64,000 bases of DNA from Escherichia coli (GTDB lineage: Bacteria; Pseudomonadota; Gammaproteobacteria; Enterobacterales; Enterobacteriaceae): NCBI RefSeq assembly GCF_030384885.1, contig NZ_CP128613.1. One strand, 5' to 3'. How positions within the stretch are numbered: the stretch's first letter is position 1; every line of letters begins with the position of its first letter. The position numbers and the translations under genes were made by a program. Shown here in pieces: positions 4,331 to 48,038 of the stretch. The notes beneath the pieces were generated by a model. That model ran no database searches and had not been told where the DNA came from. It saw only the letters and a list, made by a program, of their open reading frames with translations.

Positions 4331-5275
4331 ATGGGTCTTGATAATATAGGTTCTGTTGTCAATCGCTTCTCTGGTTGGCCATCAAATGATCCTCTAAAAA
4401 CAGATAACGAATCAATGACATCACCCGTGACTGTGCAGGTAATAAAGTTGATTGCCGCCATCCTTGACCCACATCGGATAGTCGTTGGTATCGATACACT
4501 TTATACAACGCAGCGCAAAACATTTACCTCAGAGGGTCAACAACTCATTGAATCAGCATTGAAAACACTTAATGTGATGAATTTAAATAGCCTGGAAACA
4601 GATCGCGATGAGGAGGGTAACTATCTGGCTTTTGGATATAACGTTGACACTCCTGACAGAATAACCGTTTCTGCTTATAATGAAAAAAAACCTTTCTGTT
4701 ATGGCCAATGTCTTTTAATACAGGATGAAGAACCAGATTTATTTAACCTGGTAAAAATTAAAACCTTTGAAGCCAGGCATAATTATGTTTCTAAATTGAT
4801 GAGCGATCCGGAATTTATGTTTAAATTCAGTTATAGCGCCCAACAAAATAGATTAGAACCTCATCTTCTGGTTCCCACTTATTTCCCTCTGAAAACAAAC
4901 CAACCGGTTACGCTAGAGGATGTACTGATACTTTATCGTTTCTTTAAAATGAATGGCGATTTTAATATATTAACATCAGATGAATACATGAGTATCATGA
5001 CACCTCTGATGAAGTGTGAGCGTAGTGTCCACGACCATAACAGGTATGTGACGGGCAAAGATGCTCTTCTTCTGGACAATCCTCCGTCTGGTAACCAGAT
5101 ATATTTCCATATTTCCCCTGACGAATCAGCAACACTTGTCCTTTATTTTTCAGACAATAACCTTGAATCCTTCGTCTTTGAAAATGATATTCCGAGCCAG
5201 TATCGACATTTCAAAATGTTTACCAATTTAGCACTAGTTATTGATCAGTTAACCGACGCCAATCAAATACTTTAA
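4331..5275 (+). CDS. Hypothetical protein (314 aa), no recognisable family; low-GC accessory gene
   Basis: ORF preceded by a GAGG Shine-Dalgarno about 9 nt upstream; AT-rich codon usage unlike the flanking core genes; no transmembrane segments or known motifs seen. Confidence 0.55.
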   Translation: MGLDNIGSVVNRFSGWPSNDPLKTDNESMTSPVTVQVIKLIAAILDPHRIVVGIDTLYTTQRKTFTSEGQQLIESALKTLNVMNLNSLETDRDEEGNYLAFGYNVDTPDRITVSAYNEKKPFCYGQCLLIQDEEPDLFNLVKIKTFEARHNYVSKLMSDPEFMFKFSYSAQQNRLEPHLLVPTYFPLKTNQPVTLEDVLILYRFFKMNGDFNILTSDEYMSIMTPLMKCERSVHDHNRYVTGKDALLLDNPPSGNQIYFHISPDESATLVLYFSDNNLESFVFENDIPSQYRHFKMFTNLALVIDQLTDANQIL

Positions 5276-5354
5276 TTTTCTATACAGCCCTGTGTAAAAT
5301 ATTGCTAAACAGTGCCCGGGGTTGATTTTTATTCCTCACGGTGATATTTAAATC

Positions 5355-5777
5355 ATGACCCCATCTCAGCTCTCTTTTAATACTCTTCCTGTCAATGCAA
5401 CATGCACTTCAGAGATAACAGTAAACACACAAAAATTCTCTGACATCCTCTACTCAGTGGGGTATTCCCTAAAGGATCTGGCTTATCTGAGCAGATGTCT
5501 GGCATCATTACACCCGACACTCGCCAAAAACATTTATGAAACGGAAAATCTCAGCGATCAAAAATTACTGCATATTGATTGCCGTAGTACAAATGAAATC
5601 AAGATAAATATCTTTTTTGGTCAGCAACGAGAAGGATTAATTGAAATTAGTTCTGACACAGTCATTTTTTCGATACTGTCTTCATTGATTGACTCAGCTA
5701 TTTCTGAACATCGACATCAAATCACCGTTAATGATTCAAATAATTCTGAACTATTTTATGAGGATTATACTGATTAA
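5355..5777 (+). CDS. Hypothetical acidic protein (140 aa), co-oriented partner of the upstream 314-aa gene
   Basis: ORF 79 nt downstream of the 314-aa gene on the same strand with the same AT-rich composition; D/E-rich C-terminus. Confidence 0.5.
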   Translation: MTPSQLSFNTLPVNATCTSEITVNTQKFSDILYSVGYSLKDLAYLSRCLASLHPTLAKNIYETENLSDQKLLHIDCRSTNEIKINIFFGQQREGLIEISSDTVIFSILSSLIDSAISEHRHQITVNDSNNSELFYEDYTD

Positions 5778-6320: not shown

Positions 6321-6770
6321 ATGAAGAAAGCAACACTTGTGATTGGCGTTATTGGCGCGGACTGCCATGCAGTAGGCAATAAAGTTCTGGACCGCGTTTT
6401 TAGCAACCATGACTTCAGAGTCATTAATCTGGGCGTAATGGTCAGCCAGGACGAATATATTGATGCTGCCATTGAAACTGGCGCTGACGCAATTGTCGTC
6501 TCCTCTATCTATGGGCATGGCGATATCGACTGTCTGGGCATGCGCGAACGCTGCATTGAGCGTGGCTTGGGGGACATCCTGCTCTATGTGGGCGGCAACC
6601 TGCTGGTCGGAAAACATGACTTCGCTGACGTGGAAACCAAGTTCAAAGAGATGGGATTTGATCGCGTCTTTTCCCCAAGTCATGACTTAGAAGATGTTTG
6701 TCAGCTGATGGCCCACGATATCAACCAACGTCATGACGTTGATACTCGCATTCTTGAAGAGGCAATCTGA
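6321..6770 (+). CDS. Glutamate mutase sigma (S) subunit, B12-binding (GlmS/MutS-type methylaspartate mutase small subunit)
   Basis: Translation [24 protein letters not shown]... contains the DxHxxG cobalamin-binding motif; AAGGA Shine-Dalgarno before the ATG at 6321 (the track ORF starts further upstream); followed by L and E subunits in the clostridial S-L-E order. Confidence 0.85.
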
Positions 6771-8158
6771 TGCAAATCGTCTCTGTCGATATTGGATCGA
6801 CGTGGACCAAAGCAGCCCTCTTCACCCGGGAGGGGGACGCGTTAACGTTGGTTAACCACGTTCTGACCCCAACCACCATCCATCATCTGGCAGAGGGATT
6901 TTTCTCCAGCCTTAACCAGGTGTTAAACGTAGATAATGCCCTCCCCCTGTTAAACCGTGGTGAGGTTGCATTGAAGTATTCCTCCTCTGCCAAAGGTGGG
7001 CTGGCGGTTGCCGCAATGGGATTGGTGCCTTCTATCACCCTGGAAACCGCGAAAGTAACCGCTCACTCTGCGGGTGCTAAAATTGCGCAATATTACGCCT
7101 ACAAGCTGAACCGCCGTGATATCCAGGCACTGGAAGAAACGCAGCCCGATATTCTCTTGTTCACCGGCGGCACCGACGGCGGAGAAGAAAGCTACGGACT
7201 GAATAACGCCCGTGTGCTGGCAGAATCCAAACTCGACTGCGCCATTATTTATGCCGGAAACCGGGATATTCAGGACAAGGTGCAGGAGATCCTCGGGCAT
7301 AAAGACCTGACCATCGTCGACAACGTTCTGCCCGATCTTGACCATCCGAACCCTTTAGCTGCACGCCAGGCTATCTGCGACATATTCCTTAAACGCATCG
7401 TTAAAGGGAAAGGGCTGGATGTCATTGTTGATAAAACAGGCGAAGAACCAATGCCGACACCATGGACGGTCTTTGAACTGGTGAAGGCAATCAGTAACGT
7501 CGATCACAGCTGGAAAGAGTTCATGCTGATCGACATGGGCGGCGCAACCACCGATGTCTATTCCGCCTGTGCCAACACGCTCTCGCCCGACACTGTTTTA
7601 CATGGCGTACCGGAACCCTTCGTAAAACGGACGGTGGAAGGCGATCTGGGAATGCGCGTCTCGGCAATGGTGGTTGGTGAAAGTGCGAAAGAGTTAGTCA
7701 GTGTGAATTTTGCTCAGCAACCCGCACAGTTGGACGCTTTTTATCATTACCTCCGTCATCTAGTCGCTCATCCCGACTACTTACCCGCGAATGCAGATGA
7801 AAAATATTTCGATACCGTCCTGGCCGGACTGTGTGTGGGTTATGCCACCGAAAGACATGCGGGCACCAAAAAAGAGGTCTGCACCTGCGTCGGCAATGTC
7901 GATTTACAGATGGGACGTGACCTGACAACCGTGCGTAAAGTCGTGGGTTCCGGCGGATGGCTCTCGCGTGCCAGTCAGTTCGATATGCATCACTGGTTGA
8001 AATACCGCGAGTTAAACGACGACGGTAAACGCATTCTCTTACCGACCGAATTTGAATATTACCGCGATTCCTGGGGGCTATTACCACTGCTGGCAAACGT
8101 CGCCAGAGTCGATCCGCTGGCCGCCGCGCGCACCAGTATTCAATGCTTAACCCTATAA
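6770..8158 (+). CDS. Glutamate mutase-associated MutL/GlmL protein (putative mutase chaperone/reactivase)
   Basis: 462-aa ORF whose start overlaps the S-subunit stop (TGATG); sits between the S and E subunits as in clostridial glm/mut operons. Confidence 0.75.
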   Translation: MQIVSVDIGSTWTKAALFTREGDALTLVNHVLTPTTIHHLAEGFFSSLNQVLNVDNALPLLNRGEVALKYSSSAKGGLAVAAMGLVPSITLETAKVTAHSAGAKIAQYYAYKLNRRDIQALEETQPDILLFTGGTDGGEESYGLNNARVLAESKLDCAIIYAGNRDIQDKVQEILGHKDLTIVDNVLPDLDHPNPLAARQAICDIFLKRIVKGKGLDVIVDKTGEEPMPTPWTVFELVKAISNVDHSWKEFMLIDMGGATTDVYSACANTLSPDTVLHGVPEPFVKRTVEGDLGMRVSAMVVGESAKELVSVNFAQQPAQLDAFYHYLRHLVAHPDYLPANADEKYFDTVLAGLCVGYATERHAGTKKEVCTCVGNVDLQMGRDLTTVRKVVGSGGWLSRASQFDMHHWLKYRELNDDGKRILLPTEFEYYRDSWGLLPLLANVARVDPLAAARTSIQCLTL

Positions 8159-9622: not shown

Positions 9623-10863
9623 TGAAAATAAAACAGGCCCTTTTCACCGCTGGCTACTCTTCATTCTATTTCGATGACCAGCAGGCGATAAAAAACGGAG
9701 CGGGTCACGACGGCTTTTTTTATACCGGAGAGCCGGTAACACAGGGGTTTAACGCCGTACGTCAGGCCGGGGAGTGCGTTTCGGTTCAGTTGATTCTGGA
9801 AAACGGTGCGGTCGCCGTAGGCGACTGTGCTGCCGTACAGTATTCCGGGGCAGGCGGTCGCGATCCACTGTTCCTCGCAGAGCACTTTATTCCGTTCCTC
9901 AACGACCATATCAAGCCATTACTGGTAGGCCGCGATGTGGATGCTTTCCTGCCGAATGCCCGTTTCTTCGACAAATTGCGTATTGACGGCAACTTGCTGC
10001 ATACCGCCGTACGTTACGGATTATCACAGGCGCTGCTTGATGCTACCGCGCTGGCAACCGGCCGTCTAAAAACTGAAGTGGTCTGTGATGAATGGCAGTT
10101 GCCACGCGTAGCGGAATCCATTCCATTATTTGGTCAGAGCGGCGACGATCGATATATCGCCGTCGATAAGATGATCCTTAAGGGCATCGACGTGCTGCCC
10201 CATGCGCTGATTAATAACGTCGAAGAGAAGCTGGGCTTTAAAGGTGAAAAACTGCGCGAATATGTCCGCTGGTTGTCGGATCGCATTCTGAGCAAGCGCA
10301 CCAGCGCACGCTACTACCCAACCCTGCACATCGATGTATACGGCACTATCGGTCTGATCTTCGATATGGATCCGCTTCGCTGTGCGCAATACATCGCCAG
10401 CCTGGAAAAAGAAGCGCAAGGCCTGCCGCTCTACATTGAAGGGCCGGTCGATGCCGGTAACAAGCCCGATCAAATTCGCCTGCTGACCGCGATTACCAAA
10501 GAGCTGACGCGCCTCGGTTCCGGCGTGAAAATTGTGGCCGATGAATGGTGTAACACCTACCAGGATATTGTTGATTTCACTGATGCCGCCAGTTGCCACA
10601 TGGTGCAAATCAAAACCCCGGATCTGGGCAGTATTCACAACATCGTCGATGCAGTTCTTTATTGCAACAGCCACAGCATGGAAGCGTACCAGGGCGGCAC
10701 CTGCAATGAAACTGATGTCAGTGCCCGCACCTGTGTCCACGTCGCCCTTGCTGCTCGCCCCATGCGTATGCTGGTAAAACCAGGGATGGGCTTTGACGAA
10801 GGCCTCGATATCGTCTTCAACGAAATGAATCGTACTATCGCGCTGTTGCAGGCTAAGGATTAA
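9622..10863 (+). CDS. 3-Methylaspartate ammonia-lyase (enolase superfamily)
   Basis: 413-aa ORF, start overlapping the E-subunit stop (TAATG); sequence MKIKQALFTAGYSSFYFDDQQAI... and length match MAL; operon context with glutamate mutase. Confidence 0.85.
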   Translation: MKIKQALFTAGYSSFYFDDQQAIKNGAGHDGFFYTGEPVTQGFNAVRQAGECVSVQLILENGAVAVGDCAAVQYSGAGGRDPLFLAEHFIPFLNDHIKPLLVGRDVDAFLPNARFFDKLRIDGNLLHTAVRYGLSQALLDATALATGRLKTEVVCDEWQLPRVAESIPLFGQSGDDRYIAVDKMILKGIDVLPHALINNVEEKLGFKGEKLREYVRWLSDRILSKRTSARYYPTLHIDVYGTIGLIFDMDPLRCAQYIASLEKEAQGLPLYIEGPVDAGNKPDQIRLLTAITKELTRLGSGVKIVADEWCNTYQDIVDFTDAASCHMVQIKTPDLGSIHNIVDAVLYCNSHSMEAYQGGTCNETDVSARTCVHVALAARPMRMLVKPGMGFDEGLDIVFNEMNRTIALLQAKD

Positions 10864-10866
10864 CAA

Positions 10867-12237
10867 ATGGCTCGTTCTTTTAAAGTCTTAGCGCCAACGG
10901 CAATCCTCGGGTATGGATTCCCGGAAGAGAGCTTCCGCAAAGCGATGGCAGAATCGCCCGATCTGATCGCCGTTGATGCAGGATCTTCCGATCCAGGTCC
11001 CCACTACCTCGGGGCAGGCAAACCGTTTACCGATCGCGCAGGAGTCAAGCGCGATCTGCGCTATATGATCACCGCAGGCGTGCAAAATAATATACCGGTG
11101 GTGATCGGAACGGCCGGCGGTTCTGGTGCCGCTCCACACCTGGAGTGGTGCCGAGAAATAATTCATGAGATTGCCCGGGAAGAGCGCCTCTCGTTCTCGA
11201 TGGCGCTGATCCCGGCAGACGTTGACAAAGCCATCGTCCACCAGGCGCTGGATAACGGCAAAATCACGGCGCTGGATTTTGTCCCGCCGTTAACCCACGA
11301 CGCGATTGACGAAAGTACGTATATCGTCGCGCAAATGGGCATCGAACCCTTCCAGCAGGCGCTGAAAGAAGGCGCGCAAGTGGTGCTGGGCGGGCGCGCT
11401 TACGACCCGGCCTGCTTTGCTGCGCTACCGATCATGCAAGGCTTTGATGAAGGTCTGGCGCTGCATTGTGGGAAAATCCTTGAATGCGCGGCAATCGCCG
11501 CAACGCCCGGCTCAGGCTCTGACTGTGCGATGGGCATCATTGATGACAACGGCTTTACGCTGAAGACATTTAATCCGAAGCGTAAATTTACCGAAACGTC
11601 AGCGGCTGCACACACACTGTATGAGAAATCCGATCCCTACTTCCTGCCTGGACCTGGCGGCGTGTTGAACCTGAAAGGCTGCACATTTAAAGCGGTCAAT
11701 GACGGCGAAGTGTACGTCAGCGGTTCTAAGCATGAAGAAACGCCGTATGCCCTGAAACTGGAAGGTGCGCGACGGGTGGGCTTCCGCTGTCTGACCATCG
11801 CAGGAACGCGCGACCCGATCATGATCGCCGGGATCGATAAAATCATCGATGAAGTCAAAACCAGCGTTTCGCGTAACCTGTCGCTCGACGATGACAGCAT
11901 TCGCATCAATTTCCACCTGTACGGCAAAAACGGGGTGATGGGCGACCATGAACCGATGCAAACTGCCGGGCATGAGCTGGGGATTGTCCTTGATGTAGTT
12001 GCACCGACCCAGGATATTGCCAATAGCGTTTGCTCGCTAGTGCGCTCTACCATGCTGCACTACGGCTATGAAAACCGCATCGCTACCGCAGGCAACCTGG
12101 CGTTCCCGTTCTCCCCTTCTGATATCCAGGGCGGGCCGGTATACGAATTTTCCATATATCACCTGATTGAAGCCAACGACGCTCTGCGTTTTGATTTCCA
12201 TATTGAACAGGTGACGCCAGAAGGAGTTCAGGCATGA
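10867..12237 (+). CDS. DUF1446/AtuA-like family protein of unknown function
   Basis: 456-aa ORF 4 nt after MAL in the same operon; family assignment is from memory of AtuA-like proteins and is not verified. Confidence 0.55.
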   Translation: MARSFKVLAPTAILGYGFPEESFRKAMAESPDLIAVDAGSSDPGPHYLGAGKPFTDRAGVKRDLRYMITAGVQNNIPVVIGTAGGSGAAPHLEWCREIIHEIAREERLSFSMALIPADVDKAIVHQALDNGKITALDFVPPLTHDAIDESTYIVAQMGIEPFQQALKEGAQVVLGGRAYDPACFAALPIMQGFDEGLALHCGKILECAAIAATPGSGSDCAMGIIDDNGFTLKTFNPKRKFTETSAAAHTLYEKSDPYFLPGPGGVLNLKGCTFKAVNDGEVYVSGSKHEETPYALKLEGARRVGFRCLTIAGTRDPIMIAGIDKIIDEVKTSVSRNLSLDDDSIRINFHLYGKNGVMGDHEPMQTAGHELGIVLDVVAPTQDIANSVCSLVRSTMLHYGYENRIATAGNLAFPFSPSDIQGGPVYEFSIYHLIEANDALRFDFHIEQVTPEGVQA

Positions 12238-12551
12238 AACAGTCAATTGTCTCACTGGCGCAAGTCATTCGTTCGAAAAATGCCGGACCTTACGAACTGG
12301 TTTTAGATATTTTATTTAAAACGAAAGAAAACTATGAGCGAGTAAAATCATCAGGGCAATTAACCCCAGAACTGATTGCGCGCTTATATCATGTTGAACC
12401 TGACTTTATTCATCGTATTGTCTGGTTTGATCCTTCTAACGCAGTAAAAATTGTCATGCCACGAGATATTATCTCCGGGAATGTAGGTGACAATGATGTC
12501 TATGGCGCACAGCAACATGCACCTTTATTAAATATGAGTTTCGATTTGTAA
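12234..12551 (+). CDS. Small conserved partner protein (105 aa), translationally coupled to the DUF1446-like gene
   Basis: ATGA start/stop overlap with the upstream gene; soluble; DUF1446 proteins commonly pair with a small DUF4387-type protein (recalled, not verified). Confidence 0.5.
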   Translation: MKQSIVSLAQVIRSKNAGPYELVLDILFKTKENYERVKSSGQLTPELIARLYHVEPDFIHRIVWFDPSNAVKIVMPRDIISGNVGDNDVYGAQQHAPLLNMSFDL

Positions 12552-12711
12552 AAATCCGAACACTTTTAGCCAACTGACATCCCGTCACTTATTGCAGCTC
12601 AACACTTCAGCTATTTGTAAGGTTGTTATAGCAGGTAGATGCCTGAATCTCTATTCAGGCATCCACTTCTCCTGATTCTGATTTATCGCCGTGCACCTGA
12701 TGGAGGAAAAA

Positions 12712-14099: not shown

Positions 14100-15752
14100 A
14101 TGTCCAAACCATTTATCTGGCAAGAACCGTTTCTACAAAATAAAGACGGTACAGAATATACATTAATTAGCGATCAACATATTACAGTAACGGAATTAGA
14201 CGGCGAAGAAGTGATAAAAATCGCTCCTGAAGCATTAACGCTGCTTGCCCGGCAGGCATTTTATGAAGCCTCTTTTTTCTTACGTTCCGCTCATTTGCAA
14301 CAGGTCGCCAGCATTCTTAACGATCCGCAGGCCAGTAGTAATGATAAATACGTTGCGTTGCAGTTATTACGTAATGCTGAAGTCTCAGCAAAAGGGGTAT
14401 TACCCAACTGTCAGGATACCGGCACCGCAACTATTGTTGCCAGTAAAGGGCAACAGATATGGACGGGAGGTAACGACGCTGAAGCCTTAAGCAAAGGCAT
14501 TTACAGTACTTTCCAGGAAAATAATCTGCGCTTTTCACAAAATGCGCCGCTGGATATGTATACCGAAGTCAATACGCAAACCAATCTCCCGGCGCAGATT
14601 GATATCAGCGCTGTCGCTGGTAATGAGTACCATTTTCTCTGTGTTAATAAAGGGGGCGGCTCCGCCAATAAAGCCGCGCTTTATCAGGAAACCAAATCCT
14701 TATTGCAACCAGAAAAACTGACCGCGTTTTTAATCGACAAAATGAAATCGTTGGGCACGGCCGCCTGCCCGCCCTACCACATCGCCTTTGTCGTCGGAGG
14801 GCTTTCAGCCGATCAAACCTTAAAAGTTGCCAAGCTGGCCTCAACGAAATATTACGACAATTTGCCCACCAGCGGAAATGAGCAAGGACAAGCATTCCGT
14901 GATATTGAGCTGGAAAAAGTATTGCTCGAGGCCAGTCAGCAATTTGGTATTGGTGCGCAATTTGGGGGTAAATATTTCGCTCATGATATTCGCGTCATTC
15001 GTCTGCCGCGTCACGGTGGCTCCTGCCCGATAGCTATGGCGCTCTCCTGTTCTGCCGATCGCAATATCAAAGCCAAAATTAACAAGCACGGTATCTGGCT
15101 GGAAAAACTCGAACACAATCCGGGGCAATATATTCCAGCCTCATTGCGGGAAGAAAATCACGCGCAACATGTACACCTGGATCTAAACCGTCCGTTGCGT
15201 GACGTGATGCAGGATCTCGCCAGATTACCGGTAGGTACCCGCGTGTCGTTAAGTGGTCCCATCGTAGTGGCGCGCGATATCGCCCACGCAAAAATAAAAG
15301 CGCGGCTGGATAGCGGCGAATCGATGCCGGATTACCTGAAGCATCATATTGTCTATTACGCTGGCCCGGCGAAAACACCGGAGAACATGGCCTGCGGTTC
15401 ACTGGGTCCAACCACGGGCGGTCGAATGGACGGTTATGTCGAAACCTTCCAGGCGGCTGGCGGCAGTCTGGTAATGTTATCGAAAGGTAACCGCAGCCAG
15501 CAGGTCACCGATGCCTGTCACAAACATGGCGGCTTCAATCTGGGAAGTATTGGCGGTGCAGCTGCGTTACTGGCGCAAGAATATGTCAAAAGTCTGCGTT
15601 GCCTGGAATACCCGGAGCTGGGTATGGAAGCGGTGTGGATGATGGAAGTGGAAAATCTGCCCGTATTCATCCTGGTCGATGATAAAGGCAATAATTTCTT
15701 TAGTCAGTTTGAGCAGCAACACCGCTGCGCCAGTTGCCCTGCGGGACATTAA
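14100..15752 (+). CDS. fumD: Class I (Fe-S) fumarate hydratase family enzyme; probable mesaconase (mesaconate hydratase) of the methylaspartate pathway
   Basis: 550-aa ORF with class I fumarase character and C-terminal Cys-rich region; genomic association with glutamate mutase and MAL; a mesaconase/fumarase FumD has been described in E. coli O157:H7 (recalled). Confidence 0.75.
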
Positions 15753-16397: not shown

Positions 16398-17303
16398 TTA
16401 CATCTCCTGCGGTACGACCGATTTCGCCAGCAACCATTCACGAAATTGCTGCAAGTGCGGCGAGTCAGACTTCTCTTCCTGCCACGTCATAATAAAACGA
16501 TTACCGGTACGAATAGGCACATCACAGGGAATCACCATATCGCCACTATCCAAATCATGTTGAATAGCGAACCGTGGTAACAGCGCCACGCCGAGATTAG
16601 AGCGCACGGCGGCAATCAGCATTGAAAGCAAATCGAAACGTGGTCCGTTATTGACCAGCGGACTGCTAACGCCAGATAAAGCAAACCACTCTTCCCAGCC
16701 AGTAATACGGGTGCTTTGATGCAGAAGTGGTAACTCAGTAAGCAGTTCTGCCACTGACAGTTTTTGATCGGACATTGCAAGCAAACTGCCGCTGCATACC
16801 GGCAAAATCTCCTCTTCAAAGAGATATTCGACCTCCGCCCAGGGCGCGCAAAAATTTTCGCGCATAATGACAGCATCGTACTCCCGATTAAGAAAATCGC
16901 CGTTATTAGCTAAAGAATGAATATTAACAATAATATCGGGATGTAACTTTGTGAATTCATGTAAATTTGGGATTAACCAGTGGGTACTAAACGTAGGATT
17001 AACGGCAAGTTCAATAACCTGAACCGTAGGCTGCCAGGTCATAATCGTATTGGTATCGCGTTCCAGCTTATTTAATGTTTCTTTTACTATCCCCAGGTAA
17101 TACTTCCCTGCATCATTAAGAAAAATGCGTTTTTTAGAGTGTGAAAATAACGGAGTATGTAAAAATTCCTCCAGCGCACTTACTTGTCTGAATACAGCAC
17201 TTTGGGTTAACGCTAACTCCTCTGCCGCTCTGGTATAGCTTTCATGACGTGCGACGACCTCAAAAGTCACCAGCAGCTCCGTTTTAGGTATTTTTCCTCG
17301 CAT
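16398..17303 (-). CDS. LysR-family transcriptional regulator
   Basis: N-terminal helix-turn-helix TFEVVARHESYTRAAEELALTQSAVFRQVSALE followed by a LysR substrate-binding region; the track ORF uses a TTG upstream, ATG at 17303 preferred. Confidence 0.8.
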   Translation of the reverse strand: MRGKIPKTELLVTFEVVARHESYTRAAEELALTQSAVFRQVSALEEFLHTPLFSHSKKRIFLNDAGKYYLGIVKETLNKLERDTNTIMTWQPTVQVIELAVNPTFSTHWLIPNLHEFTKLHPDIIVNIHSLANNGDFLNREYDAVIMRENFCAPWAEVEYLFEEEILPVCSGSLLAMSDQKLSVAELLTELPLLHQSTRITGWEEWFALSGVSSPLVNNGPRFDLLSMLIAAVRSNLGVALLPRFAIQHDLDSGDMVIPCDVPIRTGNRFIMTWQEEKSDSPHLQQFREWLLAKSVVPQEM

Positions 17304-17892: not shown

Positions 17893-19290
17893 ATGCATCA
17901 TCTTTCAAGGCTTGATAAAGCCTTTCTGCGCAAAGGGATCCAACTTTCCCGCGCCAACAATATTGTTTCATTATGTCGTCCATCAGGAGCCAGTGCCCGC
18001 GTACTGCTGCCGGACGAACTGCTGCTGGAAGAAAAAGCAGTGACACAACTGCTTGATTTTGCAGAAGTGAAGATACCAGGCCATCCAGGTTACGTACGCC
18101 AGACCTGTGCGACGCCAGATTTTCATCCCGGCAATGGCGTCCCCGTTGGCGCGGTGGTGGCCTCTACGCCGGATTTAGTCATTCCTGCGGCCATCGGCAC
18201 CGATATTTCTTGTGGCATGCGGCTGCTGACGACCGGATTAACACTTGAGCAAGCCGAAGCGCATAAAGACATCATCACTCAGCGGTTAACGCAAGTGCTA
18301 CTGCAAAATGAGCGCGATGTTCCGTTATCCGCACAGGCGTTCACCGCGCTTTTTGATGGCGGACCGGCAGAGTGCATGTCAGCCTTGCCATCAGCAGGTC
18401 TCTGGACACGCACGAATATCCCCCGAATGGTACAAGAGATTGACCGCTGCATTGGGCTTAACGAGCATAACAGTCATTCGCGTTATGCCCCACCCGCCCT
18501 GCTGGCAACGGACCGCGCATTACTCCGCGATCCTTGTCTGGGTACGCTGGGTTCAGGTAATCATTTTATTGAACTTCAGGTCGTTGATAGCGTGGTTGAT
18601 CGCCATGTAGCCTGGCAACAAGGGCTGAAAACAGGCGATATTGTGGTGATGATCCACAGTGGATCGCGAGATGTTGGCTTTTACGTCGGAAGACGCTGGA
18701 TGGATCGCGCCCGTGCTGAATGGCCCACCGGACATAAACATCCACAAAGCGGGTTATATGGTCTGGCAGGCGGACTGGCGGAGGAATATCTACAAGCGAT
18801 AGGAATGGCGGCGCGTTACGCGTGGTTAAATCGCGTGACAATTGCCGAAATGGTGCGCGTATGTCTTGCCAATCTCTTTCATCAGGACAATTCGCATCTG
18901 GTGGTGGATGTGCCACATAACATCATCCTTCGCGAGCATGAAATGAATATTCATCGCAAAGGCGCAACACCGGCACGAGTGGGCAATCTGGCGTTAATCC
19001 CCGGTTCAATGGGCGATTATTCCTGGCTTGCGGTAGGTTGCGGCAACCCGGAGTGGCTGTGGTCATGCAGTCACGGAGCAGGACGCAGCCAGCGTCGGCA
19101 GGCCATGCGCTCACGCGCGACTGAAGAGTCAACGTTGCCGTGGCAATGCGTCACATTGCGCGAAGAACGACGTCTTGAAGAAGCGCCAGCGGCTTATAAA
19201 GATATTGGTCCGGTTATCGAAGCTCAACAAGAAGCCGGATTAATTCAGCCAGCGGTCAGATTTCGACCGTGGTTAACGTTTAAAGCATAA
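17893..19290 (+). CDS. RtcB-family RNA ligase-like protein (orphan paralog, 465 aa)
   Basis: Motifs IPAAIGTDISCGM and C-terminal CSHGAGRSQ resemble RtcB metal-binding and active-site regions; no rtcA, rtcR or prfH-like gene nearby. Confidence 0.75.
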   Translation: MHHLSRLDKAFLRKGIQLSRANNIVSLCRPSGASARVLLPDELLLEEKAVTQLLDFAEVKIPGHPGYVRQTCATPDFHPGNGVPVGAVVASTPDLVIPAAIGTDISCGMRLLTTGLTLEQAEAHKDIITQRLTQVLLQNERDVPLSAQAFTALFDGGPAECMSALPSAGLWTRTNIPRMVQEIDRCIGLNEHNSHSRYAPPALLATDRALLRDPCLGTLGSGNHFIELQVVDSVVDRHVAWQQGLKTGDIVVMIHSGSRDVGFYVGRRWMDRARAEWPTGHKHPQSGLYGLAGGLAEEYLQAIGMAARYAWLNRVTIAEMVRVCLANLFHQDNSHLVVDVPHNIILREHEMNIHRKGATPARVGNLALIPGSMGDYSWLAVGCGNPEWLWSCSHGAGRSQRRQAMRSRATEESTLPWQCVTLREERRLEEAPAAYKDIGPVIEAQQEAGLIQPAVRFRPWLTFKA

Positions 19291-25726: not shown

Positions 25727-25802
25727 TAGGCCGGATAAGGCATTCACGCCGCATCCGGCCCTGGTTGCCTGATGCGACGCTTGCGCGTCTTATCAGGCCT
25801 GG
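25727..25802. repeat. REP/BIME palindromic repeat unit in the sdhB-sucA intergenic region
   Basis: Sequence gtaggccggataaggc...gcatccggcc and gcctgatgcgacgcttgcgcgtcttatcaggcc are typical REP palindromes. Confidence 0.8.
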
Positions 25803-45748: not shown

Positions 45749-46215
45749 CAGCGAGTTTGCTCAGGTGCAGGGATGACCGAAATTGTCATGTATTTTTTCA
45801 GTCTGGCTTCTCGTTTCACACCTTTCGGATCTGAACCAAAAGGAAGCGTCAAGCATGGTGAGTCAACGGTTTGGATTGTCCAGAGAGAATCACCAATGAA
45901 TCTGAAATTGATGCTATCCGCTGTAACGGATAATCCCTCAAAACTTCCCGTCGCATACTCATTACCCAAACGTACGGTCTCTTTAACTCCATCGTTAACA
46001 TCGATAAGGACAATTGTCAGTGATTCCTCAAAAATAACGTCATCCGTCAGAAAAAGGATATAACGCTGGTCATTAACCTGAATTGCCGCTTCCAGTATTT
46101 GCCCTGGTACAATAATACCTGTGTTATTGCCATTAAGCACAACGTCAGACTGAGCCTGAGATAAATCAGTCGCTTTGTGAACCTTGACCAACGATATCGA
46201 ATTAACCTGTTGCAT
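45748..46215 (-). CDS. Hypothetical protein (about 155 aa from the ATG at 46215; the track ORF extends to a GTG at 46308)
   Basis: ORF from the track; start ambiguous among GTG 46308, ATG 46245 and ATG 46215, the last lying 2 nt after the stop of the small glycine-zipper ORF. Confidence 0.45.
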   Translation of the reverse strand: MQQVNSISLVKVHKATDLSQAQSDVVLNGNNTGIIVPGQILEAAIQVNDQRYILFLTDDVIFEESLTIVLIDVNDGVKETVRLGNEYATGSFEGLSVTADSINFRFIGDSLWTIQTVDSPCLTLPFGSDPKGVKREARLKKYMTISVIPAPEQTR

Positions 46216-46217
46216 AA

Positions 46218-46358
46218 TCAATTCCACAAGCGCCCCATTTCCCATGCGGCAAGTGCACCGCCGACAAAGCCGCCAATAAGTACGCAAACAGGTGCTCCTG
46301 GACCACACATCAATCCGGTCAACGCACCGCCTGCGACAGCACCGGCAATAATATTCAT
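46218..46358 (-). CDS. Small glycine-zipper hydrophobic peptide (46 aa), candidate small membrane protein or toxin-like peptide
   Basis: Hand translation gives MNIIAGAVAGGALTGLMCGPGAPVCVLIGGFVGGALAAWEMGRLWN with repeated GxxxG spacing; below the track length cutoff; no strong Shine-Dalgarno seen. Confidence 0.35.
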   Translation of the reverse strand: MNIIAGAVAGGALTGLMCGPGAPVCVLIGGFVGGALAAWEMGRLWN

Positions 46359-46541
46359 CCGGGTACGACTGCCAGTGGTTTTAACAGATTTACGCTCACC
46401 GTTACGTATCCTGCCACCACTCAGGTTGCAGACGCGGCAGTCACAGCCTTGACGGTGTTGAAACTAAAGTTCAGGTGATAGTCTGATGTTCATAGTTTGA
46501 GCATTATCCCCTGACAGAATCAAATCAAGCAGTGTCAATGA

Positions 46542-46799
46542 TCACGTGTATATATCATTTAAAGCATTATCAAGCCAATCTTCCATGTTTTTAATTTTAG
46601 CCCGCGCATATAAATCATTCATAACATCCTCATAACTCTGTCCATCATTGACCATACAATTAGCTGTATGAGGCAGAACATGTATAAAATCAGACAATAT
46701 AAAACAAGCCTTTGAATTTCCAGAGTTAGCTGCAATTCTGATATCAATCAATCCTCTGGCAATCAATTTAAGAATAACATCTTGCATTTTAATTTCCAT
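46542..46799 (-). CDS. Hypothetical small protein (85 aa)
   Basis: AT-rich ORF in the same orientation as its neighbours; no recognisable motif. Confidence 0.4.
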   Translation of the reverse strand: MEIKMQDVILKLIARGLIDIRIAANSGNSKACFILSDFIHVLPHTANCMVNDGQSYEDVMNDLYARAKIKNMEDWLDNALNDIYT

Positions 46800-46881
46800 A
46801 TCATCCAGTTAAATTTCAGTAGTAAATCGTCTATCAAAAAAAGATGAAATTAACATTCATAAATTTATTACAATATGAAAA

Positions 46882-47235
46882 TCAAAAATATACATCATCA
46901 GCTTCTACCGAAAACTCCATGGCTCCTAAGGCACCTAAATCAATACTAAATATAGTATCACTTTCCTTAGCACTCCCAACATAGATAAAATAGCCTAAAT
47001 CTCCGTCTTGACCTATCAAAAAATAGTCAGGTTCCACTTGTTGAATATCATATGTTTCATTTCTTTCAATAAGATCAGAATAGTTATATAAATATAATGT
47101 TTCGTGCTTCTTATTAGTTATTTCATAGGTCTCACTATCTTTAATTTCTTCTATCAAAAAACGTTTATACACTGGAGGAAACTTGATTGACATGTCAAAT
47201 TCAATTTTATTTATATATTCTATAATTTTATTCAT
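46882..47235 (-). CDS. SUKH/SMI1-KNR4-like putative immunity protein (117 aa)
   Basis: Motif LIGQDGDLGYFIYV resembles the conserved G-x-D-G-x-G-x-Y core of SUKH immunity proteins; short, acidic, AT-rich; sits where K-12 has rhs-associated genes. Confidence 0.5.
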   Translation of the reverse strand: MNKIIEYINKIEFDMSIKFPPVYKRFLIEEIKDSETYEITNKKHETLYLYNYSDLIERNETYDIQQVEPDYFLIGQDGDLGYFIYVGSAKESDTIFSIDLGALGAMEFSVEADDVYF

Positions 47236-47464
47236 GTTAAGAATACCTGAAAGATTATTTATTGATTATCTTGATGAATATATCTTCACTTTTTATTTTC
47301 ATTTACTCATCGCGGAAATACACATTGCCTTGTAGACAAGCGCTAATAATACGTTATGAACCTGACTTCCGCCAGACAATCAATCTATGAATTCATTACG
47401 CCGTAGTGTTTTAGAAAGACACTTTCTGACCAGATGGTGAACCATATACTACATCGCGCATTAT

Positions 47465-47500
47465 AAAAAAACCGCCAGCGTTTCCACTAGCGGTTTTCAA
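47465..47500. terminator. Hairpin flanked by A-run and T-run; probable bidirectional terminator after ybfA
   Basis: Sequence aaaaaaaccgccagcgtttccactagcggttttcaa. Confidence 0.5.
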
Positions 47501-47519
47501 TGTTTTCAAAACTCAGCAA

Positions 47520-47726
47520 TCAGTAAAAATCACCGGTTGCCTTTTCGGCCTGATCCATCCACACCGGCTTATCGCTGGTTTTCGACCAGACGCGATGCAG
47601 GTAGCTGTAAAAGCGGGCGCGGTCTTTCCAGAAAAGCATGAAAGGCAGCGCCAAAACGCCCGCTGCAACCGCATAAGTACGGCGTAAAAAGATAAGCCAT
47701 GCAGGATATTCTCTGTAGAGTTCCAT
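47520..47726 (-). CDS. ybfA: Small membrane protein YbfA (DUF2517)
   Basis: 68-aa [71 protein letters not shown]. Confidence 0.9.
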
Positions 47727-47935
47727 ACTTTTCTCCCCCTTTTGTATCTACCCGGTGAATGGCACCGGAAAAATGAATTTGTTTATCTGATGAAAATAGT
47801 ACCGCCTTTTGTGTAATTTTACTACTCATCCGACCACTTATTTTTGCTTATTGATGGTTTATTTACATTCATCGTGTAATTAAGTTACATGAAAGTTAAA
47901 TTAATACTAAACATTAGTTAAATCATGGCTTTTGC

Positions 47936-47964
47936 CATTTTTATACTTTTTTTACACCCCACCC
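47936..47964 (+). promoter_or_regulatory. KdpE response-regulator binding site in the kdpFABC promoter
   Basis: Sequence tttttatactttttttacaccccacccg contains the TTTATA...TTTACA direct half-sites that I recall from the KdpE-DNA literature; located about 75 bp upstream of kdpF. Confidence 0.6.
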
Positions 47965-48038
47965 GCAGATTTTTGCGAAATCTTTGCAGCCAGAATTCTA
48001 CCCTTCCGGTATCACTTTTAGGCCACTGGAGGTGCACT

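Follow-up and report, generated by a model that had tools for sequence, protein, structure and literature searches.

Escherichia coli O157:H7 carries a methylaspartate gene cluster that was described in 2015 (PMC4682846), and the same study reported that the citrate lyase, isocitrate lyase and methylisocitrate lyase of O157:H7 gave no citramalate lyase activity and that, in its words, 'the fate of (S)-citramalate ... is still unclear'. A dedicated enzyme was thus lacking. The citramalate-lyase function is by now known from Protein Data Bank (PDB) releases of 2025 and from a 2026 preprint, the gene having been flagged in 2015. The depositors named the crystallised proteins 'Citramalate lyase, subunit A (cmlA)' and 'subunit B (cmlB)', and the entries are titled 'Citramalate lyase - AMPPNP - citramalate complex' (released 2025-10-22) and 'Citramalate lyase - ADP - pyruvate complex' (released 2025-10-08). 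In the preprint, cmlAB of Raoultella planticola was used in vivo to convert citramalate to pyruvate and acetate and the enzyme was described as independent of coenzyme A (CoA); an acetyl-CoA-auxotrophic E. coli needed the cmlAB plasmid for growth on mesaconate, and the route was confirmed by isotope labelling. We report here on two adjacent genes at positions 10867-12551 of a 64,000-nucleotide (nt) stretch of E. coli DNA (NCBI RefSeq assembly GCF_030384885.1, contig NZ_CP128613.1; the whole stretch is called the window below). They very probably form the orthologue of CmlAB, a two-subunit citramalate lyase independent of CoA and acyl carrier protein (ACP), in which a 456-amino-acid (aa) catalytic subunit of the AtuA/DUF1446 fold is joined by a 105-aa DUF4387 partner.

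10867-12237, plus strand: cmlA, 456 aa, predicted citramalate lyase large subunit; Pfam AtuA/DUF1446
12234-12551, plus strand: cmlB, 105 aa, predicted small subunit, DUF4387; ATGA-coupled to cmlA

A sequence-only reading of this DNA, made by a model, had placed a DUF1446-like protein and a small partner here. Both open reading frames (ORFs) are real, as confirmed on the plus strand by ORF listing and by direct reading, and the pair matched significantly both profile hidden Markov models of the superfamily: the large product matched AtuA (PF07287, formerly DUF1446) with E 7.3e-19 and 68 bits over residues 63-393, and the small product matched DUF4387 (PF14330) with E 2.9e-39. In the NCBIfam search no model was matched by CmlA or by CmlB.

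The PDB sequence search aligned CmlA without gaps over all 456 residues with chain A of 9ERQ and 9EVF (92.1% identity, E 1e-292), and CmlB, also ungapped, over 104 residues with chain B of 9ERQ (84.6% identity, E 5e-57). The predicted fold of CmlA is like that of 9ERQ/9EVF and unlike every other PDB entry. Chain A of 9ERQ is 100% identical to the gene product of Klebsiella michiganensis DSM 25444 (our locus L002), where the order glmS-glmL-glmE-mal-cmlA-cmlB-transporter-...-fumD-cobO is that of the E. coli island. Sequence, predicted fold and synteny with the crystallised protein's own gene together argue for orthology of the E. coli pair with CmlAB. The sequence-only reading had proposed the pair as a candidate for an uncharacterised step or accessory function in mesaconate/citramalate metabolism; given these identities the citramalate step stood, and the words uncharacterised and accessory fell, the pair being by this assignment the lyase itself, which already has a name. 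The assay with CoA suggested there was misdirected, since by description the enzyme does not need CoA, and what the crystals contain as ligands are adenine nucleotides.

The junctions bear out the claimed translational coupling of the two genes. The ATGA at 12234-12237, a 4-nt overlap of the classic type with GAAGGAG seven bases upstream (12220-12226), couples cmlB to cmlA. The further claim that the pair overlapped its neighbours by 4 nt or less held inside the pair and failed on either side of it. The mal stop TAA at 10861-10863 is followed by a 3-nt spacer (caa) and the cmlA ATG at 10867, with AAGGA 7 nt upstream of this ATG, so that the two genes are closely packed without overlap; between the end of cmlB (12551) and the start of the transporter gene (12712, RefSeq start) lies a gap of 160 nt (12552-12711), at the end of which GGAGGA (12702-12707) precedes the transporter start. 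The same gap contains a hairpin.

12637-12662, plus strand: hairpin with a perfect 11-bp stem and a 4-nt loop, GATGCCTGAAT-ctct-ATTCAGGCATC

Folding of 12631-12675 gave -19.3 kcal/mol. This hairpin is not a canonical terminator because no T-run follows the stem; its role might be that of a partial terminator, of an element for RNA processing or stability, or of a binding site for a regulator that divides the operon.

The 1685 bp of the pair are 100% identical to chromosomal sequence of E. coli strain 2013C-4282, and among 5426 complete E. coli genomes 1125 (about 21%) carry them with at least 95% identity. At least 80% of the pair is present in 1121 E. coli genomes and at least 80% of the whole 11-kb operon in 1117, and the pair never travels without the operon in this species. 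The island is 95-99% identical in more than 1100 genomes, where the pair is annotated as two normal coding sequences. A pattern scan over one genome per species gave at least 583 CmlA relatives, the closest 80 of which (57-92% protein identity) were taken as loci; their neighbours were found by tblastn with the window proteins, and counts are given over evaluable loci. These 80 loci span Enterobacterales, Rhodocyclales, Riflebacteria, Aminicenantes/Acidobacteriota, Spirochaetes, Firmicutes, Lentisphaerae, Chloroflexi, Planctomycetes, Myxococcota and Desulfobacterota. cmlB lies directly 3' of cmlA in every evaluable locus (77/77), mal is present in 67 of 72 and immediately upstream of cmlA in 65 of the 72, and glmE is present in 61 of 68. 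The co-occurrence with mal and glmE that had been put forward for checking is thus borne out, and the inference of co-expression with the methylaspartate genes finds support in a mal-cmlA-cmlB order that is kept across phyla. Among the best 150 of 2386 family representatives (clustered at 50% identity), all 17 that exceed 600 aa (608-1109 aa) have a CmlB-like domain C-terminal to the CmlA-like domain; such natural fusions speak for a single enzyme made up of A and B.

The operon lies in an island of about 15 kb between cydA and sucD, and its other genes in the window are listed here.

6321-6770, plus strand: glmS, methylaspartate (glutamate) mutase subunit S, the first gene of the operon; NCBIfam NF002612, 250 bits; RefSeq start
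6770-8158, plus strand: glmL, glutamate mutase accessory/reactivating protein; TIGR01319, 879 bits
8177-9622, plus strand: glmE, methylaspartate mutase subunit E; TIGR01503, 863 bits
9622-10863, plus strand: mal, methylaspartate ammonia-lyase; TIGR01502, 542 bits
12712-13992, plus strand: dicarboxylate/amino acid:cation symporter (GltP/DctA-like), from RefSeq; NCBIfam GltP and DctA matches, both under the curated cut-off
14100-15752, plus strand: fumD, class I fumarase/mesaconase (mesaconate to (S)-citramalate); NF011921, 1276 bits
15762-16364, plus strand: cobO/cobA, cob(I)alamin adenosyltransferase, which makes the mutase cofactor; NF004637, 295 bits
16368-16394, plus strand: terminator-like stem-loop directly 3' of cobO; 11-pair stem with 9 G-C pairs, then GTTTTAC
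16398-17303, minus strand: LysR-family regulator, convergent, with its 3' end towards cobO; NCBIfam LysR-type matches

The FumD orthologue of E. coli O157:H7 has been characterised as a mesaconase, and the symporter of the cluster was called GltP in the same work (Kronen & Berg 2015, PMC4682846); the symporter probably serves glutamate uptake. Judging from sequence and gene order, the E. coli pair most likely supplies the final step of a pathway from glutamate to pyruvate and acetate. In the proposed scheme cmlAB would be transcribed with the upstream glmS-glmL-glmE-mal, the transporter, fumD and cobO following downstream. GlmSE would convert glutamate to (2S,3S)-3-methylaspartate, Mal would deaminate this to mesaconate, FumD would hydrate mesaconate to (S)-citramalate, and CmlAB would finally cleave citramalate to pyruvate and a two-carbon unit, acetate.

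The window had also been said to lack any citramalate-cleaving enzyme, and its annotation indeed contains no citrate-lyase-type or citramalyl-CoA-lyase gene; a citCDEFXG set lies beyond the window, about 114 kb off on the same chromosome. In clostridial clusters citDEF holds the position of cmlAB (PMC4682846). When the 80 loci and the island copy were searched by tblastn with the E. coli proteins, no CitC, CitD, CitE, CitF, CitX or CitG homologue was found within 10 kb of cmlAB; citDEF in clostridia and cmlAB without Cit genes here make the pattern expected of a non-orthologous replacement. Membership of the citrate-lyase (CitDEF) type was rejected on this null over 81 loci and on the lack of an NCBIfam match. 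As far as sequence comparison tells, CmlAB fills the missing enterobacterial step and takes the place of the clostridial CitDEF complex, to which it is unrelated.

Cleavage of citramalate needs a carbanion on the acetate side, which the classical citramalate and citrate lyases stabilise via a thioester. In the crystals, citramalate or pyruvate is bound together with an adenine nucleotide, the ATP (adenosine triphosphate) analogue AMPPNP (adenylyl imidodiphosphate) or ADP (adenosine diphosphate). From the complexes of AMPPNP with citramalate and of ADP with pyruvate we infer that ATP may activate the C4 carboxylate as an acyl phosphate. ATP would phosphorylate this carboxylate and so let the acetate-side carbanion form, and a retro-aldol cleavage would then give pyruvate and (enol) acetyl phosphate. 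Two fates are conceivable for the phosphoryl group: departure as acetyl phosphate, with recovery by acetate kinase, or transfer back to ADP on the enzyme. Cleavage by CmlAB through such an ATP-derived acyl phosphate is put forward tentatively, from the ligands. If true, the acyl phosphate would be a third way to an acetate carbanion, beside thioesters and the isocitrate-lyase type, and this chemistry might be the hallmark of the entire DUF1446/DUF4387 superfamily, which comprises 2386 clusters at 50% identity and takes in AtuA and the fungal fusions. The first of the two fates of the phosphoryl group leads to a variant in which the same enzyme is ATP-dependent and energy-conserving: citramalate and ATP would give pyruvate, acetyl phosphate and ADP, acetate kinase would regenerate the ATP, and acetate would be the product only in the net balance. 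We regard this variant as possible, with doubt.

Several points weigh against the assignment of the E. coli pair as a working citramalate lyase. In the literature library searched, we found no primary biochemical study of CmlAB; for its activity the sources are the names given by the depositors, the names of the ligands and a single preprint in which the enzyme serves as a tool, and a literature search on DUF1446/DUF4387 gave Kronen and Berg 2015 as its only relevant match. The evidence for activity stems from orthologues and not from the E. coli proteins. The 2015 study found no condition that expressed the O157:H7 cluster and detected no Mal activity (PMC4682846), so that the operon could be silent, or used only in the host. 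Finally, 5 of the 72 loci (three of Shewanella, one of Accumulibacter and one of Desulfospira) carry cmlAB without mal within 10 kb, and members of the clade can thus serve other citramalate sources or another substrate. In these five (Shewanella L061, L072 and L074, Accumulibacter L029, Desulfospira L063) cmlAB is 57-68% identical and no mal or glm gene lies within 10 kb; in Shewanella the pair is flanked by hrpA and an M4 metalloprotease gene, and fadE is close by.

The expression result of 2015 bears on the possibility that the genes are orthologous to cmlAB and yet belong to a cryptic or decaying operon, the pair being without current function in this strain, and the presence of the island in only about 21% of the complete E. 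coli genomes can be read the same way. This is nevertheless unlikely, for all ten island genes (nine on the plus strand, and the LysR regulator) are intact and of full length in the window, the island keeps its 95-99% identity across those more than 1100 genomes, and cmlA and cmlB of E. coli retain all of the clade-invariant residues listed below.

A much less probable alternative takes the large gene as the AtuA of acyclic terpene utilisation, lying in this operon by accident. It draws on the Pfam AtuA match, on the RefSeq name 'acyclic terpene utilization AtuA family protein' and on the tentative assignment of AtuA as an acetate-releasing lyase (PMC4847356). Against it, the Pfam match covers part of the protein at a modest score (the 68 bits and residues 63-393 given above), true AtuA is a single fused chain of about 600 aa, the mal linkage holds across phyla, and crystals of a near-identical protein contain citramalate or pyruvate. 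The window annotation contains no atu genes (geranyl-CoA carboxylase etc.), and AtuA in the strict sense was rejected for the pair on this lack of an atu cluster and on its separate, unfused subunits. That the large gene is a second methylaspartate ammonia-lyase or a part of glutamate mutase, as older UniRef and GenBank source names on the CmlA sequence cluster would have it ('3-methylaspartate ammonia-lyase', 'putative 3-methylaspartate ammonia-lyase, glutamate mutase'), has next to no probability and the ammonia-lyase label is refuted by the profile and fold results, since CmlA matches neither TIGR01502 nor any other NCBIfam model, against 542 bits for the upstream mal, its fold resembles only 9ERQ/9EVF in the PDB, and Kronen and Berg (PMC4682846) had already called the annotation unexplained.

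The conserved residues fall into two groups. Those kept over 101 distant representatives include D42, G44, P45, D63, G87, R177, D180, H200, K203, E206, C207, Y252, E253, E299, R307, E370 and H432, which are candidates for a common catalytic or cofactor machinery. Invariance restricted to the mal-linked clade is seen at K52, Y179, S216, C220, R239, K254 and D419, and these residues may determine the specificity for the substrate. Paralogues at 41-50% identity keep the A-then-B pairing without mal linkage and cannot extend the function; its transfer should not go beyond the clade with at least about 57% identity.

A further protein, here called F6, recurs with the operon in 38 of the 80 loci, all of them outside Enterobacterales (examples are L041:11689-12636, L081:4532-5446, L064 and L065). 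It is a P-loop protein of about 305-315 aa with the Walker A sequence GEEGSGKST, and its gene lies directly 3' of cmlB or, in Firmicutes, directly 5' of glmS. Searches of Pfam, NCBIfam and the PDB sequences gave no significant match for F6, and the E. coli island lacks it; it may assist either the mutase or the ATP-binding lyase.

Within the island, the stem-loop after cobO is probably the operon end, and it is the sole feature used from promoter and terminator scans that gave no more matches than shuffled sequence. The LysR gene stands at the island edge and is kept beside the operon in Enterobacterales loci. A search of the operon with Rfam found no riboswitch, and in particular no cobalamin riboswitch ahead of the B12-dependent mutase genes; over the whole window Rfam gave a single match above gathering score, naRNA4 (CssrE) at 25729-25799 (79 bits). 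The left island edge between cydA and glmS (4331-5777) holds two ORFs (314 and 140 aa), both 'hypothetical protein' in RefSeq, in a stretch of 36.7% G+C whose composition suggests a separately acquired element. At its right edge, beside sucD, a stand-alone RtcB-family RNA ligase gene (17893-19290) has no rtcA or rtcR nearby. Outside the island the window carries common core genes of E. coli (suc, sdh, gltA, ybgOPQ, nei, pxpABC, kdp, speF-potE, pgm, seqA). By the RefSeq annotation, a patch of low G+C (37.7%) at 46001-48000, between ybgA and ybfA, contains small hypothetical genes, a contact-dependent-inhibition immunity gene and an IS630 transposase fragment.

With the pair assigned as CmlAB, the gap left in 2015 in the enterobacterial methylaspartate pathway, the fate of citramalate, would be closed; it concerned about one-fifth of E. 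coli genomes, most O157:H7 among them, and also Citrobacter, Klebsiella/Raoultella, Salmonella arizonae, Yersinia, Morganella and Hafnia. Public names lag behind, the genes being called 'AtuA family' and 'DUF4387' or, wrongly, '3-methylaspartate ammonia-lyase' and, for CmlB in UniRef, 'Acyl-CoA synthetase'. The 90%-identity protein cluster of CmlA also lists 413-aa members named 'methylaspartate ammonia-lyase'; these and the 'Acyl-CoA synthetase' name have the look of artefacts of clustering or annotation, by which wrong names are passed on. A clade rule (at least about 57% identity to CmlA, a DUF4387 partner and a mal neighbour) could rename thousands of genes. The assignment also offers a concrete chemical hypothesis for the large DUF1446/DUF4387 family, AtuA included, and a compact, CoA-independent citramalate-cleaving module usable in pathway engineering.

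Among known systems, the E. coli pair shares its A-then-B order with the DUF1446/DUF4387 pairs at 50% identity or less and differs from them in its mal linkage; their neighbours include a major facilitator superfamily transporter and a flavin adenine dinucleotide oxidoreductase, or ribosomal protein genes, and fused forms occur in fungi. AtuA shares both PF07287 and PF14330 with the pair, and its proposed chemistry likewise appears to be the release of acetate from a carboxymethyl group on a tertiary alcohol (PMC4847356), so that citramalate cleavage fits a family-wide theme. AtuA is, however, a single fused chain (615 aa in Thauera, PMC4847356) encoded in an atu operon with geranyl-CoA carboxylase and acting on a CoA ester, whereas the E. 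coli pair is split, linked to mal and predicted to act on a free dicarboxylate. The citramalate lyase of Clostridium tetanomorphum (EC 4.1.3.22, a CitDEF-like ACP complex) has the pathway position and net reaction of CmlAB (PMC4682846); CmlAB is unrelated to it in sequence, has no ACP subunit, prosthetic group or activation genes, and carries adenine nucleotides in its structures, as would suit a non-orthologous replacement. Closest of all is CmlAB of Raoultella planticola/Klebsiella (9ERQ, 9EVF), with which the E. coli pair shares subunit lengths (456 and 105 aa), architecture, predicted fold and the position after mal, and from which it differs by species-level sequence divergence only.

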